IMG/VR virus record: IMGVR_UViG_2619619134_000014
Strand: one strand, 5' to 3'
DNA: 6,359 nucleotides
Origin: a virus
Lineage: Duplodnaviria > Heunggongvirae > Uroviricota > Caudoviricetes
The notes under the pieces were generated by a model that had not been told where the DNA came from, searched no databases, and saw only the letters and a program-made list of their open reading frames with translations. A program made the translations under genes and the position numbers. Within the stretch, counting starts at the first letter, position 1, and every line of letters starts with the position of its first letter. Of the stretch, positions 1 through 6,359 are shown one piece after another.

Positions 1-276
1 TTACCGACTGCGGCCTGAGTTTTTTAAGTGACGTAAAATCGTGTTGAGGCCAACGCCCATAATGCGGGCTGTTGCCCGGCATCCAACGCCATTCATGGCC
101 ATATCAATGATTTTCTGGTGCGTACCGGGTTGAGAAGCGGTGTAAGTGAACTGCAGTTGCCATGTTTTACGGCAGTGAGAGCAGAGATAGCGCTGATGTC
201 CGGCGGTGCTTTTGCCGTTACGCACCACCCCGTCAGTAGCTGAACAGGAGGGACAGCTGATAGAAACAGAAGCCAC
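1..276 (-). CDS. insA: IS1 InsA protein (91 aa)
   Basis: Translation [91 protein letters not shown] matches IS1 InsA from memory, including the zinc-finger-like CxxC...CxxC N-terminus and the HTH region. Confidence 0.95.
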
Positions 277-308
277 TGGAGCACCTCAAAAACACCATCA
301 TACACTAA

Positions 309-331
309 ATCAGTAAGTTGGCAGCATCACC
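309..331 (-). repeat. IS1 terminal inverted repeat (about 23 bp)
   Basis: Reverse complement of 309..331 is GGTGATGCTGCCAACTTACTGAT, matching the IS1 terminal inverted repeat as recalled. The transition to non-IS sequence is at 331/332. Confidence 0.85.
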
Positions 332-498
332 CGATGAACCATGAGAACGTCGTTGACGATGGCGTGCATTTTCCCGTCTTTATCATCAACGTATTTTCTG
401 ACCGTACCGCGACTACATTTCAGTCTGCGTGCTACTTCTGTCTGGTTTCCGTATGCTTCAACGAGCATGTCTGGAATGGTTTTTACTGAGAACGTCAT
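332..498 (-). pseudogene. ninH: ninH homologue, 3'-truncated by the IS1 insertion (first 56 codons intact)
   Basis: ORF 310..498 begins [56 protein letters not shown], matching lambda NinH (68 aa, from memory) up to residue 56. It then continues as VMLPTY-stop, which is encoded by IS1 terminal sequence. The ATG at 498 overlaps the ninG stop (ATGA). Confidence 0.8.
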
Positions 499-1106
499 GC
501 GGCCTCACTTCTGCTATTTCGCAGGTCTTTGAGTTTCTGCTGATACTCCGCCTTGATGGCCCTGCACTCTTCGACAGTCCAACGATGGCGGCTATGGTTT
601 GATTCGATTTCGTCTACTGCTTCCTGCCCGATGCGGCTAATCAGTTCGACGCGATACGGAACGAGATTTCCGCTTTTGTGCTGGTTGCACACCACGCATT
701 GCTTGTGAATATTGCGTTCATCAAATCGGAGTTGAGGTGCCGCAGCAGTTGTCCGGTAATGTCCGGCATCCCACTGAGCAGACGTGAGCGTTCCGCACGA
801 GATACATGGTAAGTCGCGGTCTCTTTCTCTGATGAAGGCGTTTACGGCTTTTTGGGCTTGTTTAATCCAGTAACTGCGGGGCTTTAAGGCGAGTTTTCGA
901 ATCTTAAGTTTATCTTTCTGTTTCTGCTCCTCTCGTCGTCGTTTCTTCTCTGCTGCCTTTTCCGCTTTTTCGCGTTCTTTGCTTCGTCGTTCGAGTGCTA
1001 TCTTTGTTCCACACTCTGGAGAGCACCACCACTGATTAGCGAATGCAGGGTGAAACCATTCCCGACATTCATCGTTTTTACATCGTCTTCGCGCTGGTTT
1101 AGCCAT
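495..1106 (-). CDS. ninG: NinG/Rap recombination-promoting protein (203 aa)
   Basis: Translation [41 protein letters not shown]... with a cysteine-rich N-terminus and a central lysine/glutamate-rich segment matches lambda NinG (Rap) as recalled. The gene sits between ninF and ninH as in lambda. Confidence 0.88.
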
Positions 1107-1275
1107 CGTCTTCTTCCTCGTACATTGAGCTATTCGGATCGCTCATCAGTTCTGCGCAGCAGTGCTCACACACGTGAACTTCCAGCACATGCAGCTTCTG
1201 ACCGCAGTTAGCGCACGTTAATGCCCGCTCGACGCTTTCTTTCTGGTATTGAAGGGATTGGGATGGGCTAAGCAT
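1102..1275 (-). CDS. ninF: NinF (57 aa)
   Basis: Not in the ORF track because it is under 60 aa. Manual translation of the minus strand from ATG at 1275 gives [58 protein letters not shown]-stop, with two CxxC pairs, matching lambda NinF as recalled. Its 3' end overlaps the ninG start. Confidence 0.82.
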
Positions 1276-1636
1276 TATTGGCGTCCTGAATCATGAGAAA
1301 TACAATCATGGCTGCGCGGAGAGGCGATTCACCGCAGAAGCAGTAGTCAGGAACCCAACAACCTTCCTCTAAATCACCTCCTGACCATGCGCACCATTCT
1401 TTTTCCGCTGTCATCCACATGGTGCTAATTTTGTTTTCAGTGATGATCGGATATGCGTCAGCGGCCATATTACATGGGTCGAAATATCCGCAAGGCAAAA
1501 ACTCACCACCATCAATTCCAGCCAAGTAAACTTCTTTCTTTTCTGGATCCCAGTCGTAATTGTTTTTTCCTAGCACGATATGCGCGACTTTTAAGTTAAT
1601 TTCAAAATCACTTAACTGTGAATAATCCATGGTCAT
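1268..1636 (-). CDS. NinX-like phage protein (about 122 aa) inserted between ninE and ninF
   Basis: ORF 1268..1672 minus. The likely start is ATG at 1636 ([44 protein letters not shown]...), preceded by GAGGAA and overlapping the ninE stop (ATGA). P22-type nin regions carry a ninX gene at this position; the family assignment is from memory and is not verified by alignment. Confidence 0.55.
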
Positions 1637-1809
1637 TTCCTCGCACGTTCTCTTAGCCACCGGATATCCCACAGGTGAGCCGTGTAATTGAAGGTTTTTA
1701 CGTCAGATTCTTTTGGGATTGGCTTGCGTTTATTTCTGGAGTGTTTCGTTGGAAGGTATTTGCAGTTTTCACAGATTATGTCGGTGATACTTCGTCGCTG
1801 TCGTCTCAT
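1633..1809 (-). CDS. ninE: NinE (58 aa)
   Basis: Internal Met of ORF 1633..1854 gives [58 protein letters not shown], matching lambda NinE as recalled. The ATG at 1809 overlaps the stop of the upstream gene (ATGA). Confidence 0.8.
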
Positions 1810-2216
1810 TCGTACCTCCTGTCGGTAAATCTGACACCCTGACCAATAGCCCATGCTGTCGTGTACTCAATCAGACTTGCCATACGCTTCACACTCATCT
1901 GCGCGCTACTTTCGCGAATGTTGACGTATTCGCCTTCAAGGCCGGGCAAAACATCAGCTTCCTGCTTTGTTGCCACTGCATGACCGCTGATCAACAAAAC
2001 CTTCCATTGTTCCGGTTTTAACCATTTGCCGCACCATTGAACCTGACGTGCGATATCCGCCAGCATCGCGTGAAATTTTGCGTTCTGGTCAAGGTTGCGC
2101 TTGTAGTCAGTAATGCGGATGGTGACTGGCTTGTCTTTATCGAGTGGTGTTGCGAGGATGGCATTTATTGCAGCTTGCTGTTGTTGCTTAGTTCGGAGGA
2201 AGATTGTTTGCTTCAC
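1806..2216 (-). CDS. ninB: NinB-family (NinB/Orf-like) recombination mediator, GTG start (136 aa)
   Basis: Translation [79 protein letters not shown]... shares the conserved pattern of lambda NinB (..RSLDQNRKLWACLGDVSRQVEWHGRWL..ESWK..). AAGGAG lies 6 nt upstream of the GTG at 2216. Confidence 0.7.
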
Positions 2217-2227
2217 TGAATACTCCT

Positions 2228-2413
2228 TTATTTTTTATGCCTGTAACCCCATTCTTCCAGCAACCTTGCGGCGTACCACCCAAGAAACAAAGGAAAGAAC
2301 ATTACAATGAGATATTCCCCGCCACGGTCAATGTTCGAAATTGACCAGATTACGATGTAACCAGTGCAGGACAGGAATATTACAAACCCCAAAAAGCTAC
2401 TTCGTCGACTCAT
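2228..2413 (-). CDS. small predicted membrane protein with two hydrophobic segments (61 aa from ATG 2413; the ORF track starts 2 codons earlier at GTG 2419)
   Basis: Translation MSRRSSFLGFVIFLSCTGYIVIWSISNIDRGGEYLIVMFFPLFLGWYAARLLEEWGYRHKK has two hydrophobic stretches of about 19 residues and a basic C-terminus. AAGGAG lies 5 nt upstream of ATG 2413, and the stop of the upstream gene (TGA 2416-2418) sits between that SD and the ATG. No family recognised. Confidence 0.5.
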   Translation of the reverse strand: MSRRSSFLGFVIFLSCTGYIVIWSISNIDRGGEYLIVMFFPLFLGWYAARLLEEWGYRHKK

Positions 2414-2415
2414 GC

Positions 2416-2742
2416 TCACTCCTTCACTTTGATTCCAGCAGCGCGGATGTTTTCCTCATAAGCATCCATTGCATCACCGAAGCCATTGGAATAATCAACA
2501 GTAAACCCTTTGGCTAATGCTTCTCTGCTGTCGATAAACTTTGGCGCGGTTATTTCAATAGCTGCTCGCGATGCCTGCCACGTTTGCCAGTGGCCTTGAA
2601 CATCGTCCATCACGTATTGACCACCAATATTACCGCTGCCAATTTCATGGTGATTTTCAGGGTAACGGATAAGGTCTGAAGATTCGCCTCCACGTCGCAA
2701 CCAACTTTCTTCAAACTGGCATCTGCTTTCGTCATCTTTCAT
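2416..2742 (-). CDS. hypothetical phage protein, probably N-terminally truncated (108 aa from ATG 2742; the frame stays open upstream to 2820 with no start codon)
   Basis: ORF 2416..2742 minus (MKDDESRCQFEESWLRRGGESSDLIRYPENHHEIGSGNIGGQYVMDDVQGHW...). The same frame is open for a further 26 codons upstream (YAAFNSAVGGGSTPWGEPIFIECDCL) with no ATG, GTG or TTG, and there is no Shine-Dalgarno before ATG 2742. This suggests the true N-terminus was lost at the junction near 2820. Family not recognised. Confidence 0.45.
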   Translation of the reverse strand: MKDDESRCQFEESWLRRGGESSDLIRYPENHHEIGSGNIGGQYVMDDVQGHWQTWQASRAAIEITAPKFIDSREALAKGFTVDYSNGFGDAMDAYEENIRAAGIKVKE

Positions 2743-2820
2743 AAGGCAGTCACATTCAATAAAAATCGGCTCTCCCCAAGGAGTAGAACCTCCGCCAACG
2801 GCGGAGTTGAATGCGGCATA

Positions 2821-3309
2821 TCAATCAAGATTGATTCCGAATGGGTAACCAAATGGGATGCTGCTGAAAACACGCAGGTAGAAGCCGTCAAAGGTGGTCG
2901 TTCCGGTGCAATGAAGCGCGCTGCCGTTCAGTGGGGAATCGGTCGGTATCTGTATAACCTTGAGGAAGGTTTCGCACAAACATCTCTCGACAAAAAGCAG
3001 GGATGGCACAGGGCAAAACTCAAGGATGGAACAGGATTTTACTGGCTCCCTCCATCGCTGCCGGGCTGGGCAATCCCAGCATCAGATAACAAACCATCAC
3101 CAGAAAATACCAACCAGAAATCTCCATCGGTTGACTGCGAACAAATCCTGAAAGACTTCAGCGATTATGCAGCGACAGAAACTGACAAGAAAAAACTCAT
3201 CGAGCGTTATCAGCGTGACTGGCAATTAATGGCTGGCAATGAGGATGCGCAGGCTAAATGCGTTCAGGTAATGAACATCAGAGTTAACGAGCTAAAACAG
3301 GCGGCATAA
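2821..3309 (+). pseudogene. erf: C-terminal fragment of a Rad52/Erf-like single-strand annealing protein (ORF from Met 2911 is 132 aa; protein-like frame is open from about 2821)
   Basis: The frame reads ...AVKGGRSGAMKRAAVQWGIGRYLY..., resembling the conserved KRA..FG.G motif region of Rad52/Sak-type annealing proteins. The C-terminus (CEQILKDFSDYAATETDKKKLIERYQRDWQLMAGNEDAQAKCVQVMNIRVNELKQAA) closely resembles the P22 Erf C-terminus as I recall it. The 150 or so residues that should precede the motif are absent, and upstream in-frame sequence before about 2821 is not protein-like. Confidence 0.6.
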
Positions 3310-3825
3310 ATGGCAAGCAGAGGCGTAAATAAGGTGATCATTATTGGTCGCCTTGGGCATGATCCAGAAATCAGATATTCACCATCAGGAACGGCATTTG
3401 CAAACCTTACAGTTGCTACGTCAGAACAATGGCGTGATAAGCAAACTGGAGAGCAAAAGGAGCAGACGGAGTGGCACCGCGTGGTAATGAGCGGGAAACT
3501 GGCAGAAATTGCCAGCGAATATCTGCGAAAAGGCTCTGAGGTTTATCTTGAAGGAAAATTGCGGACAAGAAAATGGCAGGATCAAAGCGGACAGGATAGG
3601 TTCACTACCGAAGTCATCGTGGGCGTTGGTGGAACCATGCAAATGCTTGGTGGCAAGCAAGGAGGCAATGAACAGTCTTCACCTCAGCGAAATAACGGTC
3701 AGCAACAAAGACAGCAATCTCAGCAGCAGGGGAATCACAGCGAACCACCTATGGATTTTGACGACGATATACCCTTTGCACCAGTAACTCTCCCCTTCCC
3801 TCGTCACGCTATTCACGCAATTTAA
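3310..3825 (+). CDS. ssb: single-stranded DNA-binding protein, phage-type, with a 15-residue extension beyond the canonical DDDIPF C-terminus (171 aa)
   Basis: Translation [115 protein letters not shown]... is near-collinear with E. coli SSB (OB fold, Gly/Gln-rich linker, [10 protein letters not shown] tail). The ATG at 3310 directly follows the erf stop (TAAATG). Confidence 0.95.
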
Positions 3826-3838
3826 TCAGGAGAAAATC

Positions 3839-4132
3839 ATGCCAGCGCCTCTGTATGGTGCGGACGACGCGCGCCGCTGTTCCGGCAATTCCGTATCAGA
3901 GGTGCTGGATAAATTCAGAAAAAACTACGATCGGATAATGTCGCTACCGCAGGAAACGAAAGAGGAAAAGGAATTTCGCCATTGTATATGGCTTGCAGAG
4001 AAAGAAGAACGCGAGCGGATTTACCAGACATCAATCCGACCATTCCGCAAAGCCACATATACCCACTTCCCTGAAATTGACCCGCGCCTGCGTAATTATC
4101 GATCACGCTATGGCGCTATCAGTAATGACTGA
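3839..4132 (+). CDS. hypothetical small phage protein (97 aa); possibly Abc2-like anti-RecBCD, unverified
   Basis: ORF with AGGAG 6 nt upstream of ATG 3839. Translation [97 protein letters not shown]. Its size and position downstream of the recombination genes are reminiscent of P22 abc2, but I cannot confirm sequence identity from memory. Confidence 0.6.
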
Positions 4133-4142
4133 GGAATTTACC

Positions 4143-4310
4143 ATGAGAGGACTTGCATACAATCCCGGCATTCTTCCGGCAGAAATGATTATTCGCCAAC
4201 GCGTAAAGCCAATGCCATCGAGAGAGGAATTGCTTAAAAGGAAGAGTTTCGGTTCTGTTAATGACAACAAATATCTGAATGCGATGTGGCGTAAAGGAGG
4301 CAAGCAGTGA
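4143..4310 (+). CDS. hypothetical small basic protein (55 aa)
   Basis: Internal ATG 4143 of track ORF 3993..4310, chosen because GAGGA lies 7 nt upstream and it starts just after the stop of the preceding gene. Translation [55 protein letters not shown]. Its stop overlaps the next gene's GTG start. Confidence 0.5.
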
Positions 4311-4606
4311 GTGTATGTCTTATTGATAAACGTCGACGTGGGCAACAAATACCATCTGTTGGAATGCCGAATCACACATGGTTTTGCGTACTTGATATCG
4401 ATGGTATGGATGCGTTGGTTGACACTCGTCATTACTGCGATACCGCAACAGCTACTCCGGCGAAAGCAAAGAAAATGGCTGCTCTGATAGAAAACTGGAC
4501 TCCACCTGATGGTTGGTGCAATGGGAATGATCGAGATTGGCATGAAAAAATGAAGGGCTATATCTGCGATTTCTTACGTAAATGCAACGGCTTCAGGGTG
4601 ATGTGA
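4307..4606 (+). CDS. hypothetical phage protein (99 aa, GTG start)
   Basis: AAAGGAGG lies 6 nt upstream of GTG 4307, which overlaps the upstream stop (GTGA). Translation [99 protein letters not shown]. No family recognised. Confidence 0.5.
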
Positions 4607-4607
4607 T

Positions 4608-5216
4608 ATGACCAAAATTAACTATCAGGCGCTGCGTGAAAAGGCAGAGAAAGCAACGAGTGGTGTGTGGTCGCTCGAATATGGAGAGGAGAGATTTGAT
4701 GCTGGTGATGCGCTAATTCATCGTGAAGTTGTTGGATATCTTCCCATTTGCAGAATTGAAGGAGCGCATCCTGAAAGCGGTTTCGATGAAGATTTCCAAA
4801 TGGAACAGCAGGCCAATGCTGAATTCATCGCCGCAGCCAATCCGGCTACCGTCTTGGCGCTGCTTGGCGAGCTGGAAGCAGCAAAAAAGCGCATAGCAGA
4901 ACTGGAAGCCGAACCTGTAAGCCAAACTTGCAAGTTGAACGAGCCATCGGGCAACTCTCCGGTAACTCCGGATGGTTGGGTTATAGTGCCGAAGAAACTA
5001 ACCGCTGAGAACGGCGCTAAGGGTGTGCTATCCGGTGAATTTTCAGAAACTACGTTTATAAGCTGCCCGGAATGCTTTGGTGATGATGATTGCGAAACTT
5101 GTGACGGCAGCGGGAGAATCGAAATCAAGGTTCCAGTCAGTTGGACAACTATCAAAACTATTTGGGCTAAAGGGTGTGAGTACTTTTCAATAGTAGCACC
5201 GCAGCAAGATGGGTGA
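4608..5216 (+). CDS. ead/Ea22-like protein with a C-terminal double-CxxC (CxxCxGxG-like) zinc-ribbon motif (202 aa)
   Basis: The N-terminal region (MTKINYQALREKAEKATSGVWSLEY ... ANAEFIAAANPATVLALLGELEAAKKRIAELEAEP) resembles the conserved N-terminus and coiled coil of lambdoid ead/Ea22-like proteins as I recall them. The C-terminus has CPECFGDDDCETCDGSGRIE. The start at 4608 follows the upstream stop by 1 nt. Confidence 0.55.
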   Translation: MTKINYQALREKAEKATSGVWSLEYGEERFDAGDALIHREVVGYLPICRIEGAHPESGFDEDFQMEQQANAEFIAAANPATVLALLGELEAAKKRIAELEAEPVSQTCKLNEPSGNSPVTPDGWVIVPKKLTAENGAKGVLSGEFSETTFISCPECFGDDDCETCDGSGRIEIKVPVSWTTIKTIWAKGCEYFSIVAPQQDG

Positions 5217-5844: not shown

Positions 5845-5864
5845 ACGCAATTTGAACGAATGCG

Positions 5865-5890
5865 AACCCGCCGAGTGCGGGTTTTCTTTT
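5865..5890 (+). terminator. putative Rho-independent terminator
   Basis: AACCCGC (5865-5871), loop CGAGT, GCGGGTT (5877-5883), followed by TTTCTTTT. This is a 7-bp GC-rich stem with a T-rich tail, 20 nt after the TAA at 5842-5844. Confidence 0.6.
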
Positions 5891-5933: not shown

Positions 5934-6101
5934 ATGCACTTCCGAGTCACAGGTGAATGGAATGGAGAACCATTCAACAGAGTTATCGAAGCGGAGAACA
6001 TCAACGACTGCTATGACCACTGGATGATATGGGCGCAGATAGCGCATGCAGACGTAACCAATATTCGAATTGAAGAACTGAAAGAACACCAAGCCGCCTG
6101 A
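5934..6101 (+). CDS. hypothetical small protein (55 aa)
   Basis: Below the ORF-track size cutoff; found manually. GGAG lies 7 nt upstream of ATG 5934. Translation MHFRVTGEWNGEPFNRVIEAENINDCYDHWMIWAQIAHADVTNIRIEELKEHQAA. It is flanked by intrinsic terminators on both sides. Confidence 0.55.
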   Translation: MHFRVTGEWNGEPFNRVIEAENINDCYDHWMIWAQIAHADVTNIRIEELKEHQAA

Positions 6102-6114
6102 TGGCGGTTTTTTA
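6093..6114 (+). terminator. putative Rho-independent terminator overlapping the stop codon of the 55-aa gene
   Basis: GCCGCC (6093-6098), loop TGAT, GGCGG (6103-6107), followed by TTTTTTATT. The TGA stop (6099-6101) lies in the loop. Confidence 0.6.
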
Positions 6115-6158: not shown

Positions 6159-6359
6159 ATGCAACACGAACTACAACCTGATTCACTGGTTGATTTGAAA
6201 TTCATCATGGCTGATACTGGCTTCGGTAAGACCTTCATCTATGACCGGATTAAGTCCGGCGACCTGCCAAAAGCCAAAGTTATCCACGGGCGAGCAAGAT
6301 GGTTATATCGTGACCATTGTGAATTCAAAAATAAGCTCTTAAGCCGCGCCAATGGGTAA
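6159..6359 (+). CDS. alpA: AlpA-family phage regulatory protein / excisionase-like DNA-binding protein (66 aa)
   Basis: Translation MQHELQPDSLVDLKFIMADTGFGKTFIYDRIKSGDLPKAKVIHGRARWLYRDHCEFKNKLLSRANG fits the AlpA/Vis-type helix-turn-helix pattern (..TG.S..TIY..I..G.FP.P.K.G.R...W.). GGAG lies 9 nt upstream of the ATG. Confidence 0.72.
   Translation: MQHELQPDSLVDLKFIMADTGFGKTFIYDRIKSGDLPKAKVIHGRARWLYRDHCEFKNKLLSRANG

Follow-up and report, generated by a model that had tools for sequence, protein, structure and literature searches.

The KplE1 (CPS-53) element of E. coli K-12 lacks a repressor and does not respond to SOS induction, but IntS and TorI can excise it; its 16-nt att core reads CTGCAGGGGACACCAT (PMC2951348). 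The DNA analyzed here, a stretch of 6,359 nucleotides that we refer to as the window, appears to be the core of a defective P22-like prophage with a lambdoid early region, residing in E. coli at this same site. The remnant as a whole can be followed in chromosome CM127658.1 (locus L013), where it lies between two copies of the 16-nt core that are 11.9 kb apart and outside the window, and where the chromosomal flanks are collinear with K-12, between argW and dsdC. KplE1/CPS-53 and the remnant thus share the argW-dsdC site, the att core, an identical TorI protein, an intS end that is about 97% identical in DNA, gtr-type O-antigen modification genes beside intS, the lack of a repressor and a length of about 10-12 kb (PMC2951348). 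Their interiors are unrelated: K-12 keeps yfdK-yfdT, whereas the remnant keeps ninB-ninH and ssb-abc2-ead. Because only the two ends align, the two elements are best regarded as the remains of different mosaic phages that decayed independently at one site.

Two further comparisons are informative. Intact P22-like phages of the Sf6/HK620/phiv205-1 type (Lederbergvirus) and the prophages of E. coli ws5-3 and APEC IMT5155 have the same gene order as the window, including torI beside attR, and their DNA is 88-99% identical to it on either side of the joint described below. They differ from the remnant in possessing the 7-8.5-kb immunity/N/replication interval, full-length Rad52/Erf and PF26207 genes, and Q with the late genes. 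A related prophage at sbcB in E. coli VE-T2 (NZ_AP027960.1) resembles the remnant in that it lacks N, cI, cro, cII, O and P, and in that a 5'-truncated nin-region methyltransferase gene stands head to head with leftward-operon genes (at about 3342-4239 of locus L018). Since its breakpoints and site are different, and since kil, cIII, Q, the lysis genes and an uncut Rad52 gene are still present in it, it represents an independent event.

The gene layout of the window, based on the ORF list and on precomputed Pfam labels of identical contigs, is presented in Table 1. The nin region of the rightward operon and the recombination/early-left region of the leftward operon meet head to head, with nothing between them. 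Beyond the window, past torI, lie attR and dsdC, and the complete order in L013 is argW side, intS, gtrA, gtrB, a 383-aa ORF, half of a tail-fibre gene, IS1, the cut ninH, the joint, torI, attR and dsdC. The small hydrophobic ORF next to ninB has no family match beyond a sub-threshold one to acyltransferases and is not called as a gene on identical contigs; a 54-aa hypothetical protein is annotated at the equivalent position in phiv205-1. Within the 300 nt upstream of torI, two strong terminator-like hairpins on the plus strand (5864-5884 and 6091-6110), each with an 8-bp stem followed by a T-run, bracket a 55-aa ORF (5934-6101, phrog_676) and may limit read-through into torI.

Table 1. Features of the window, with the corresponding interval in intact relatives
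Feature	Position	Strand	Basis or remark
End of an IS1 copy	1-331	-	insA 1-276; terminal inverted repeat 309-331
ninH, 3' end cut by IS1	310-498	-	62-aa fusion product instead of 68 aa
ninG	495-1106	-	
ninF	1099-1275	-	
ninX	1268-1630	-	
ninE	1633-1809	-	
ninB, Orf-family recombination mediator	1806-2216	-	Orphaned rightward (nin) operon; first gene in it that is clearly intact
Small hydrophobic ORF, 63 aa	2228-2419	-	Between ninB and the PF26207 gene
5'-truncated gene of the PF26207 (phiTE_015)/phrog_343 family, nin region	2416-2795	-	DNA and protein alignment, profile matches
Perfect GC-rich 7-bp inverted repeat formed by the joining, CTCCGCC-AAC-GGCGGAG	2790-2806		No T-run after it
Deletion joint	2795|2796		Homology switch in alignments with both parents
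5'-truncated gene for a Rad52/Rad22-type single-strand annealing protein (Sf6 gp28-like)	2796-3309	+	DNA and protein alignment, Pfam
Phage ssb	3310-3825	+	First intact gene of the orphaned leftward operon; start codon directly after the truncated Rad52 stop
abc2 (anti-RecBCD)	3839-4132	+	
DUF2737	4143-4310	+	
DUF7739	4307-4606	+	
ead/Ea22	4608-5216	+	Small ORFs between this gene and torI
torI (excisionase/RDF)	6159-6359	+	Protein 100% identical to E. coli K-12 TorI
Interval in Sf6	22,425-30,969 of Sf6		About 8.5 kb; genes 29-47
Interval in phiv205-1 and APEC IMT5155			About 7.1 kb between equivalent breakpoints
Interval in E. coli ws5-3			About 7.2 kb; intact prophage, same torI-dsdC site, Rad52 gene 99% identical

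We conclude that the arrangement very probably reflects one illegitimate-recombination deletion of about 7-8.5 kb in a defective Sf6/HK620-type prophage at argW, next to dsdC. The evidence for this comes first from the joint itself. When positions 2200-3400 of the window were compared by megablast with 50,697 phage records, matches extended only over 2796-3400 (query positions 597-1201), the Erf-like/Rad52 and ssb part, at 89-98.5% identity. The left part (2200-2795) matches other phages and ends exactly at query position 596 in phiv205-1 and vB_EcoP-683R2, so that the best matches of the two flanks come from different phages. Alignment of the window with both parents shows that 2795 is the last base of the nin-region homology and 2796 the first base of the Rad52-gene homology: in the left parents (phiv205-1, vB_EcoP-683R2 and APEC IMT5155) the match stops at 2795, and in the right parents (Sf6, IME10, CurroJimenez, E. 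coli ws5-3 and more than 600 E. coli genomes) it begins at 2796. Breaks at adjacent nucleotides, with 88-99% identity to intact relatives on either side, are not a pattern expected by chance. The initial annotation had proposed that two divergent genes lose their N-terminal portions at a single point and had suggested alignment with intact lambdoid and P22-like phages; this alignment indeed reveals collinear homology on both sides and one break point. It had also placed the beginning of the protein-like Rad52 frame at about 2821. The truncation on this side holds, but the position must be moved 25 nt earlier, to 2796/2797.

The joint is blunt, with no microhomology, filler, IS fragment or target duplication. 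The parents carry a T after the left breakpoint and an A before the right one, where the window has a C in both comparisons. A microhomology-mediated deletion was considered and rejected, because the parental bases beside each breakpoint differ from those of the window.

The damage to the gene on the right is unambiguous. Its frame is open from 2680 to 3309, with no ATG, GTG or TTG before the ATG at 2911. The match begins 194 nt into Sf6 gene 28, which encodes 235 residues, so that 64 2/3 of the 235 codons have been deleted, and in the protein alignment Met2911 corresponds to residue 104 of Sf6 gp28. It is therefore not the natural N-terminus of intact homologues, as it would be in a native arrangement. 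The residual ORF (2911-3309) encodes 132 aa and retains only the tail of the Pfam domain. Whereas intact Sf6 gp28 covers positions 7-153 of the 153-position Rad52_Rad22 profile (PF04098), the fragment covers 91-153 and the product from Met2911 only 119-153. Thus 59% of the domain is missing from the gene, the complete N-terminal annealing domain is absent from the product, and the earlier description of a frame lacking most of its annealing domain was roughly right. Because the 5' 194 nt and most of the profile have been lost, the annealing protein must certainly be inactivated.

The gene on the left requires a more careful argument. The minus-strand frame that ends at 2416 can be read without interruption as far as 2820, where it meets an in-frame stop (2821-2823), and its first ATG, GTG or TTG is the ATG at 2742, upstream of which no Shine-Dalgarno sequence was found (GTGACTGCCTTATG); the initial annotation had correctly described an open frame with neither start codon nor ribosome-binding site at its head. 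In phiv205-1 and 683R2 the match to the window covers a gene of 138/144 aa except for the first 43 nt after its annotated start. These 43 nt amount to 14 1/3 codons of the long, Cys-rich form of the protein, which is 138-144 aa in length and begins with a GTG preceded by a GGAGG Shine-Dalgarno sequence. The GTG, the GGAGG and the first 14 codons are thus deleted in the window, and alignment with the long form shows that the window protein lacks MSKCQKCNNTGMCDS and is identical from GGSTPWGEPIFIECDCLMKDDES onward. What remains from the internal Met is an ORF of 108 aa (2416-2742) that keeps the whole family core; it matches phrog_343 with E = 2.8e-29, aligned across the full core SRxQFEESWLRRGG...AAGxKVK. 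The gene carries a precomputed PF26207 label on an identical contig. Proteins of this family were matched by PHROGs and by precomputed Pfam labels, and gave no match with NCBIfam and one Pfam profile set.

It may be asked whether this gene is truncated at all. If its real start were Met2742, the deletion endpoint would fall in upstream DNA that is non-coding or separately coded, and only the Rad52 gene would be damaged. Natural short forms of 106 aa that read MDESRK..., found on hundreds of contigs, start two residues from Met2742, so that homologues with a natural N-terminus at this place do exist. Even for the intact IMT5155 prophage, PGAP reports a 106-aa product that starts at the internal Met; the phrog_343 core is fully kept in the 108-aa ORF, and the N-terminal extensions of the family behave as interchangeable modules. 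Against this, the upstream 96 nt of the long-form genes are in frame, encode a CxxC...C...CxC pattern as an N-terminal extension, and place the GTG five nt after the GGAGG and 12 nt from the preceding gene. The natural short forms carry GAGGG before their ATG, whereas Met33 of the long form has no Shine-Dalgarno sequence, and for the long form two phage annotations and several gene callers arrive at 138-144 aa. We consider an untruncated left gene unlikely, and we still read the gene as truncated at its 5' end because 2743-2795 matches the in-frame 5' part of the long form, with its GTG/GGAGG spacing, and because Met33 lacks a Shine-Dalgarno sequence. If the PGAP start were real, the left breakpoint would not fall inside a gene but 53 nt upstream of an intact one. 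Even so, the 106-aa forms do not rescue the arrangement as a native one, since 2743-2795 has its homologue in coding sequence, at the 5' end of the long form, and since the Rad52 gene has plainly been cut. Truncation need not mean loss of function: as the 108-aa ORF keeps the whole core and matches the natural 106-aa forms, the left gene may not be inactivated, and its product could be functional if expressed.

Two observations on this family may be added. In nature the PF26207/phrog_343 core is preceded by no extension (87-106 aa), by the 32-aa Cys-rich one, or by an unrelated one of about 48 aa, and these three N-termini are interchangeable. Annotation pipelines differ on the start of the long form, giving either 138 aa or 106 aa.

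The second line of evidence concerns what lies between the two breakpoints elsewhere. In intact relatives this interval is 7-8.5 kb long, and the modules that it holds and the window lacks are kil, cIII, N, pL/OL, cI, pRM/pR/OR, cro, cII, an O-like initiator with ori, and a P/DnaB-like helicase. Genes 29-47 of Sf6, for example, comprise kil, cIII, N, nutL, pL/OL, the repressor, pRM, pR/OR, cro, nutR, tR1 and cII, followed by an O-like initiator with ori, a DnaB-like helicase, ninA and tR2. The modules listed as absent in the initial annotation (N, pL, cI, pR, cro, cII and O/P) are therefore found between the same landmarks in intact relatives. Illegitimate recombination would have joined nt 43 of the PF26207 gene, in the rightward operon, to nt 195 of the Rad52-type gene, in the leftward operon, and would have taken everything between them, from kil through the P/DnaB-like helicase, together with the repressor, the early promoters and the origin. 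The comparators are mosaic relatives and not the true ancestor, and the size of the deletion is therefore given as a range; nor can a single event be proved from such relatives.

The same end result could have been reached in several steps, by nested deletions, by insertion of an IS followed by an adjacent deletion and loss of the IS, or by recombination between two resident prophages. The lineage is certainly prone to deletion, as an IS1-bounded deletion lies 2.5 kb from the joint and a further deletion of about 2 kb crosses the scar in sister assemblies. That the best matches of the flanks lie in different phages is expected for mosaics, and it would also be expected of a two-parent origin. 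However, the clean structure of the joint, with neither filler nor an IS fragment nor a target duplication, speaks against a stepwise history. Both flanks are in normal order between attL and attR of one site in a chromosome collinear with K-12, and the same gene order occurs in the intact prophage at that site in ws5-3. We regard a multistep origin as quite improbable. The abutting breakpoints, the interval present in relatives and the simple internal position of the deletion between the att cores together support the single deletion that was proposed initially.

A second, separate deletion must be distinguished from this one. In L013 (10223-11964), IS1 separates the cut ninH from a tail-fibre gene of which only the C-terminal half remains (phrog_14879 positions 315-640 of 642), and therefore an IS1-bounded deletion removed Q, the lysis and head genes and most of the tail genes. 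Throughout the remnant in the complete chromosome we found no repressor, replication, packaging or virion genes other than this half tail-fibre gene.

The gene content has predictable consequences. Loss of pL, pR, N and the nut sites would leave the two divergent blocks without a native early promoter. With no repressor to inactivate or cleave, and no O, P or ori, induction to lytic growth would not be expected, and the element is thus predicted, from the absence of the repressor, early promoters, N, O and P, to be non-inducible. Excision may nevertheless still be possible, as in K-12 KplE1, given that the element retains intS, torI and the two att cores, with TorI at the attR end and the integrase gene at the opposite one. 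That kil, N and the replication functions are missing agrees with the usual purging of harmful functions from prophages.

One could go further and propose that the remnant, far from inert debris, is a domesticated module, from which precisely the toxic and autonomous functions (kil, N, the cI/cro switch and replication) were shed and in which another set was kept, and that the GC-rich inverted repeat at the joint could be the trace of a hairpin-associated joining or act as a weak insulator between the orphaned operons. The kept set would consist of recombination and DNA-metabolism functions (NinB/Orf, NinG/Rap, SSB and the Abc2 anti-RecBCD protein), the core-only PF26207 protein, which resembles the natural short forms, the O-antigen glucosylation genes, and IntS/TorI, still able to excise the island. 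Among 20,000 random joints simulated between the parent sequences, 0.86% had a joint-spanning stem of 7 bp or more (p about 0.009), a value that refers to a post-hoc observation. Lacking a T-run, the palindrome is not a terminator-like site. A crude consensus scan of 2200-3400 found no promoter-like or terminator site, an Rfam search found no RNA family, and the window as a whole has fewer promoter-like sites than shuffled sequences; on these grounds a new regulatory element at the joint is not supported. As a whole, this proposal seems to us very doubtful. An origin of the palindrome by template switching or from P nucleotides was rejected by reasoning, in that six bases of its left arm come from the left parent; a strand switch at the repeat would moreover yield an inversion joint, unlike the one observed.

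Might the arrangement be native, that of a functional phage, satellite or island with a compact regulatory region where its divergent nin and recombination operons meet? The retention of intS, torI and both att cores does make the remnant a formally mobilizable unit. On the other hand, none of the 50,697 phage records spans 2795|2796 by megablast, so that the same gene order was not found in a functional phage among them; both genes are cut mid-codon with respect to close homologues; no promoter-like site is present at the joint; and of the repressor, replication, packaging and virion genes only half a tail-fibre gene is left. A native arrangement is barely credible and has effectively been refuted already.

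The distribution of the joint places the deletion within a lineage. Among 5,426 complete E. coli genomes, 646 have the right side and 472 the left side, and in none are the two joined; nor does the exact 42-mer across the joint match any GTDB species-representative genome. Four independent assemblies (a draft from NCBI, an ENA metagenome contig and two Logan assemblies of SRA data), 99.96-100% identical to the window, share one and the same 41-mer across the joint, and a 5.04-Mb chromosome is 99.98% identical over the whole window. Exact-protein look-ups placed the diagnostic 132-aa product on 61 contigs, where it is named as an E. coli protein. A Shigella origin, which IS1 and the lack of the joint in complete E. 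coli genomes had suggested, was rejected on account of these E. coli names. The question raised at the outset, whether the joint is shared or strain-specific, is answered by these data, and since the same joint recurs in independent assemblies and on 61 contigs, the scar is no artefact but has been passed on within a lineage of E. coli. Many assemblies are broken by IS1 repeats at the left end of the window, but nothing else points specifically to an assembly artefact or chimeric contig, and the identical joint in the NCBI draft, the two Logan assemblies, the ENA metagenome assembly and the 5.04-Mb chromosome leaves such an explanation with negligible probability.

The practical consequence is one of annotation: in these E. 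coli assemblies the 108-aa ORF and the 132-aa "hypothetical protein/recombinase" are both products of the deletion, and the appropriate label for the element is that of a defective prophage at the KplE1/CPS-53 site, which should not be scored as inducible. The deletion is an ordinary step in prophage decay, which leaves a known kind of scar in cryptic lambdoid/P22-like prophages; it is not surprising and opens no new biological question. The argW-dsdC site does present a small series of decay states, which comprises the intact prophages of ws5-3 and IMT5155, the doubly deleted remnant, sister assemblies with the additional deletion of about 2 kb and without torI and dsdC, and the unrelated remnant of K-12, and this series could serve studies of prophage domestication.

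The sister assemblies (loci L014 and L016) share the ninH::IS1 junction with the window. Their further deletion runs from ninX into ssb (1615-3601 in window coordinates) and swallows the scar; it lies at a short, imperfect microhomology, TCACT(T)A, and may have arisen either in an element of the window type or in an intact ancestor. Compared with the window beyond 6029, they are also without torI and dsdC.
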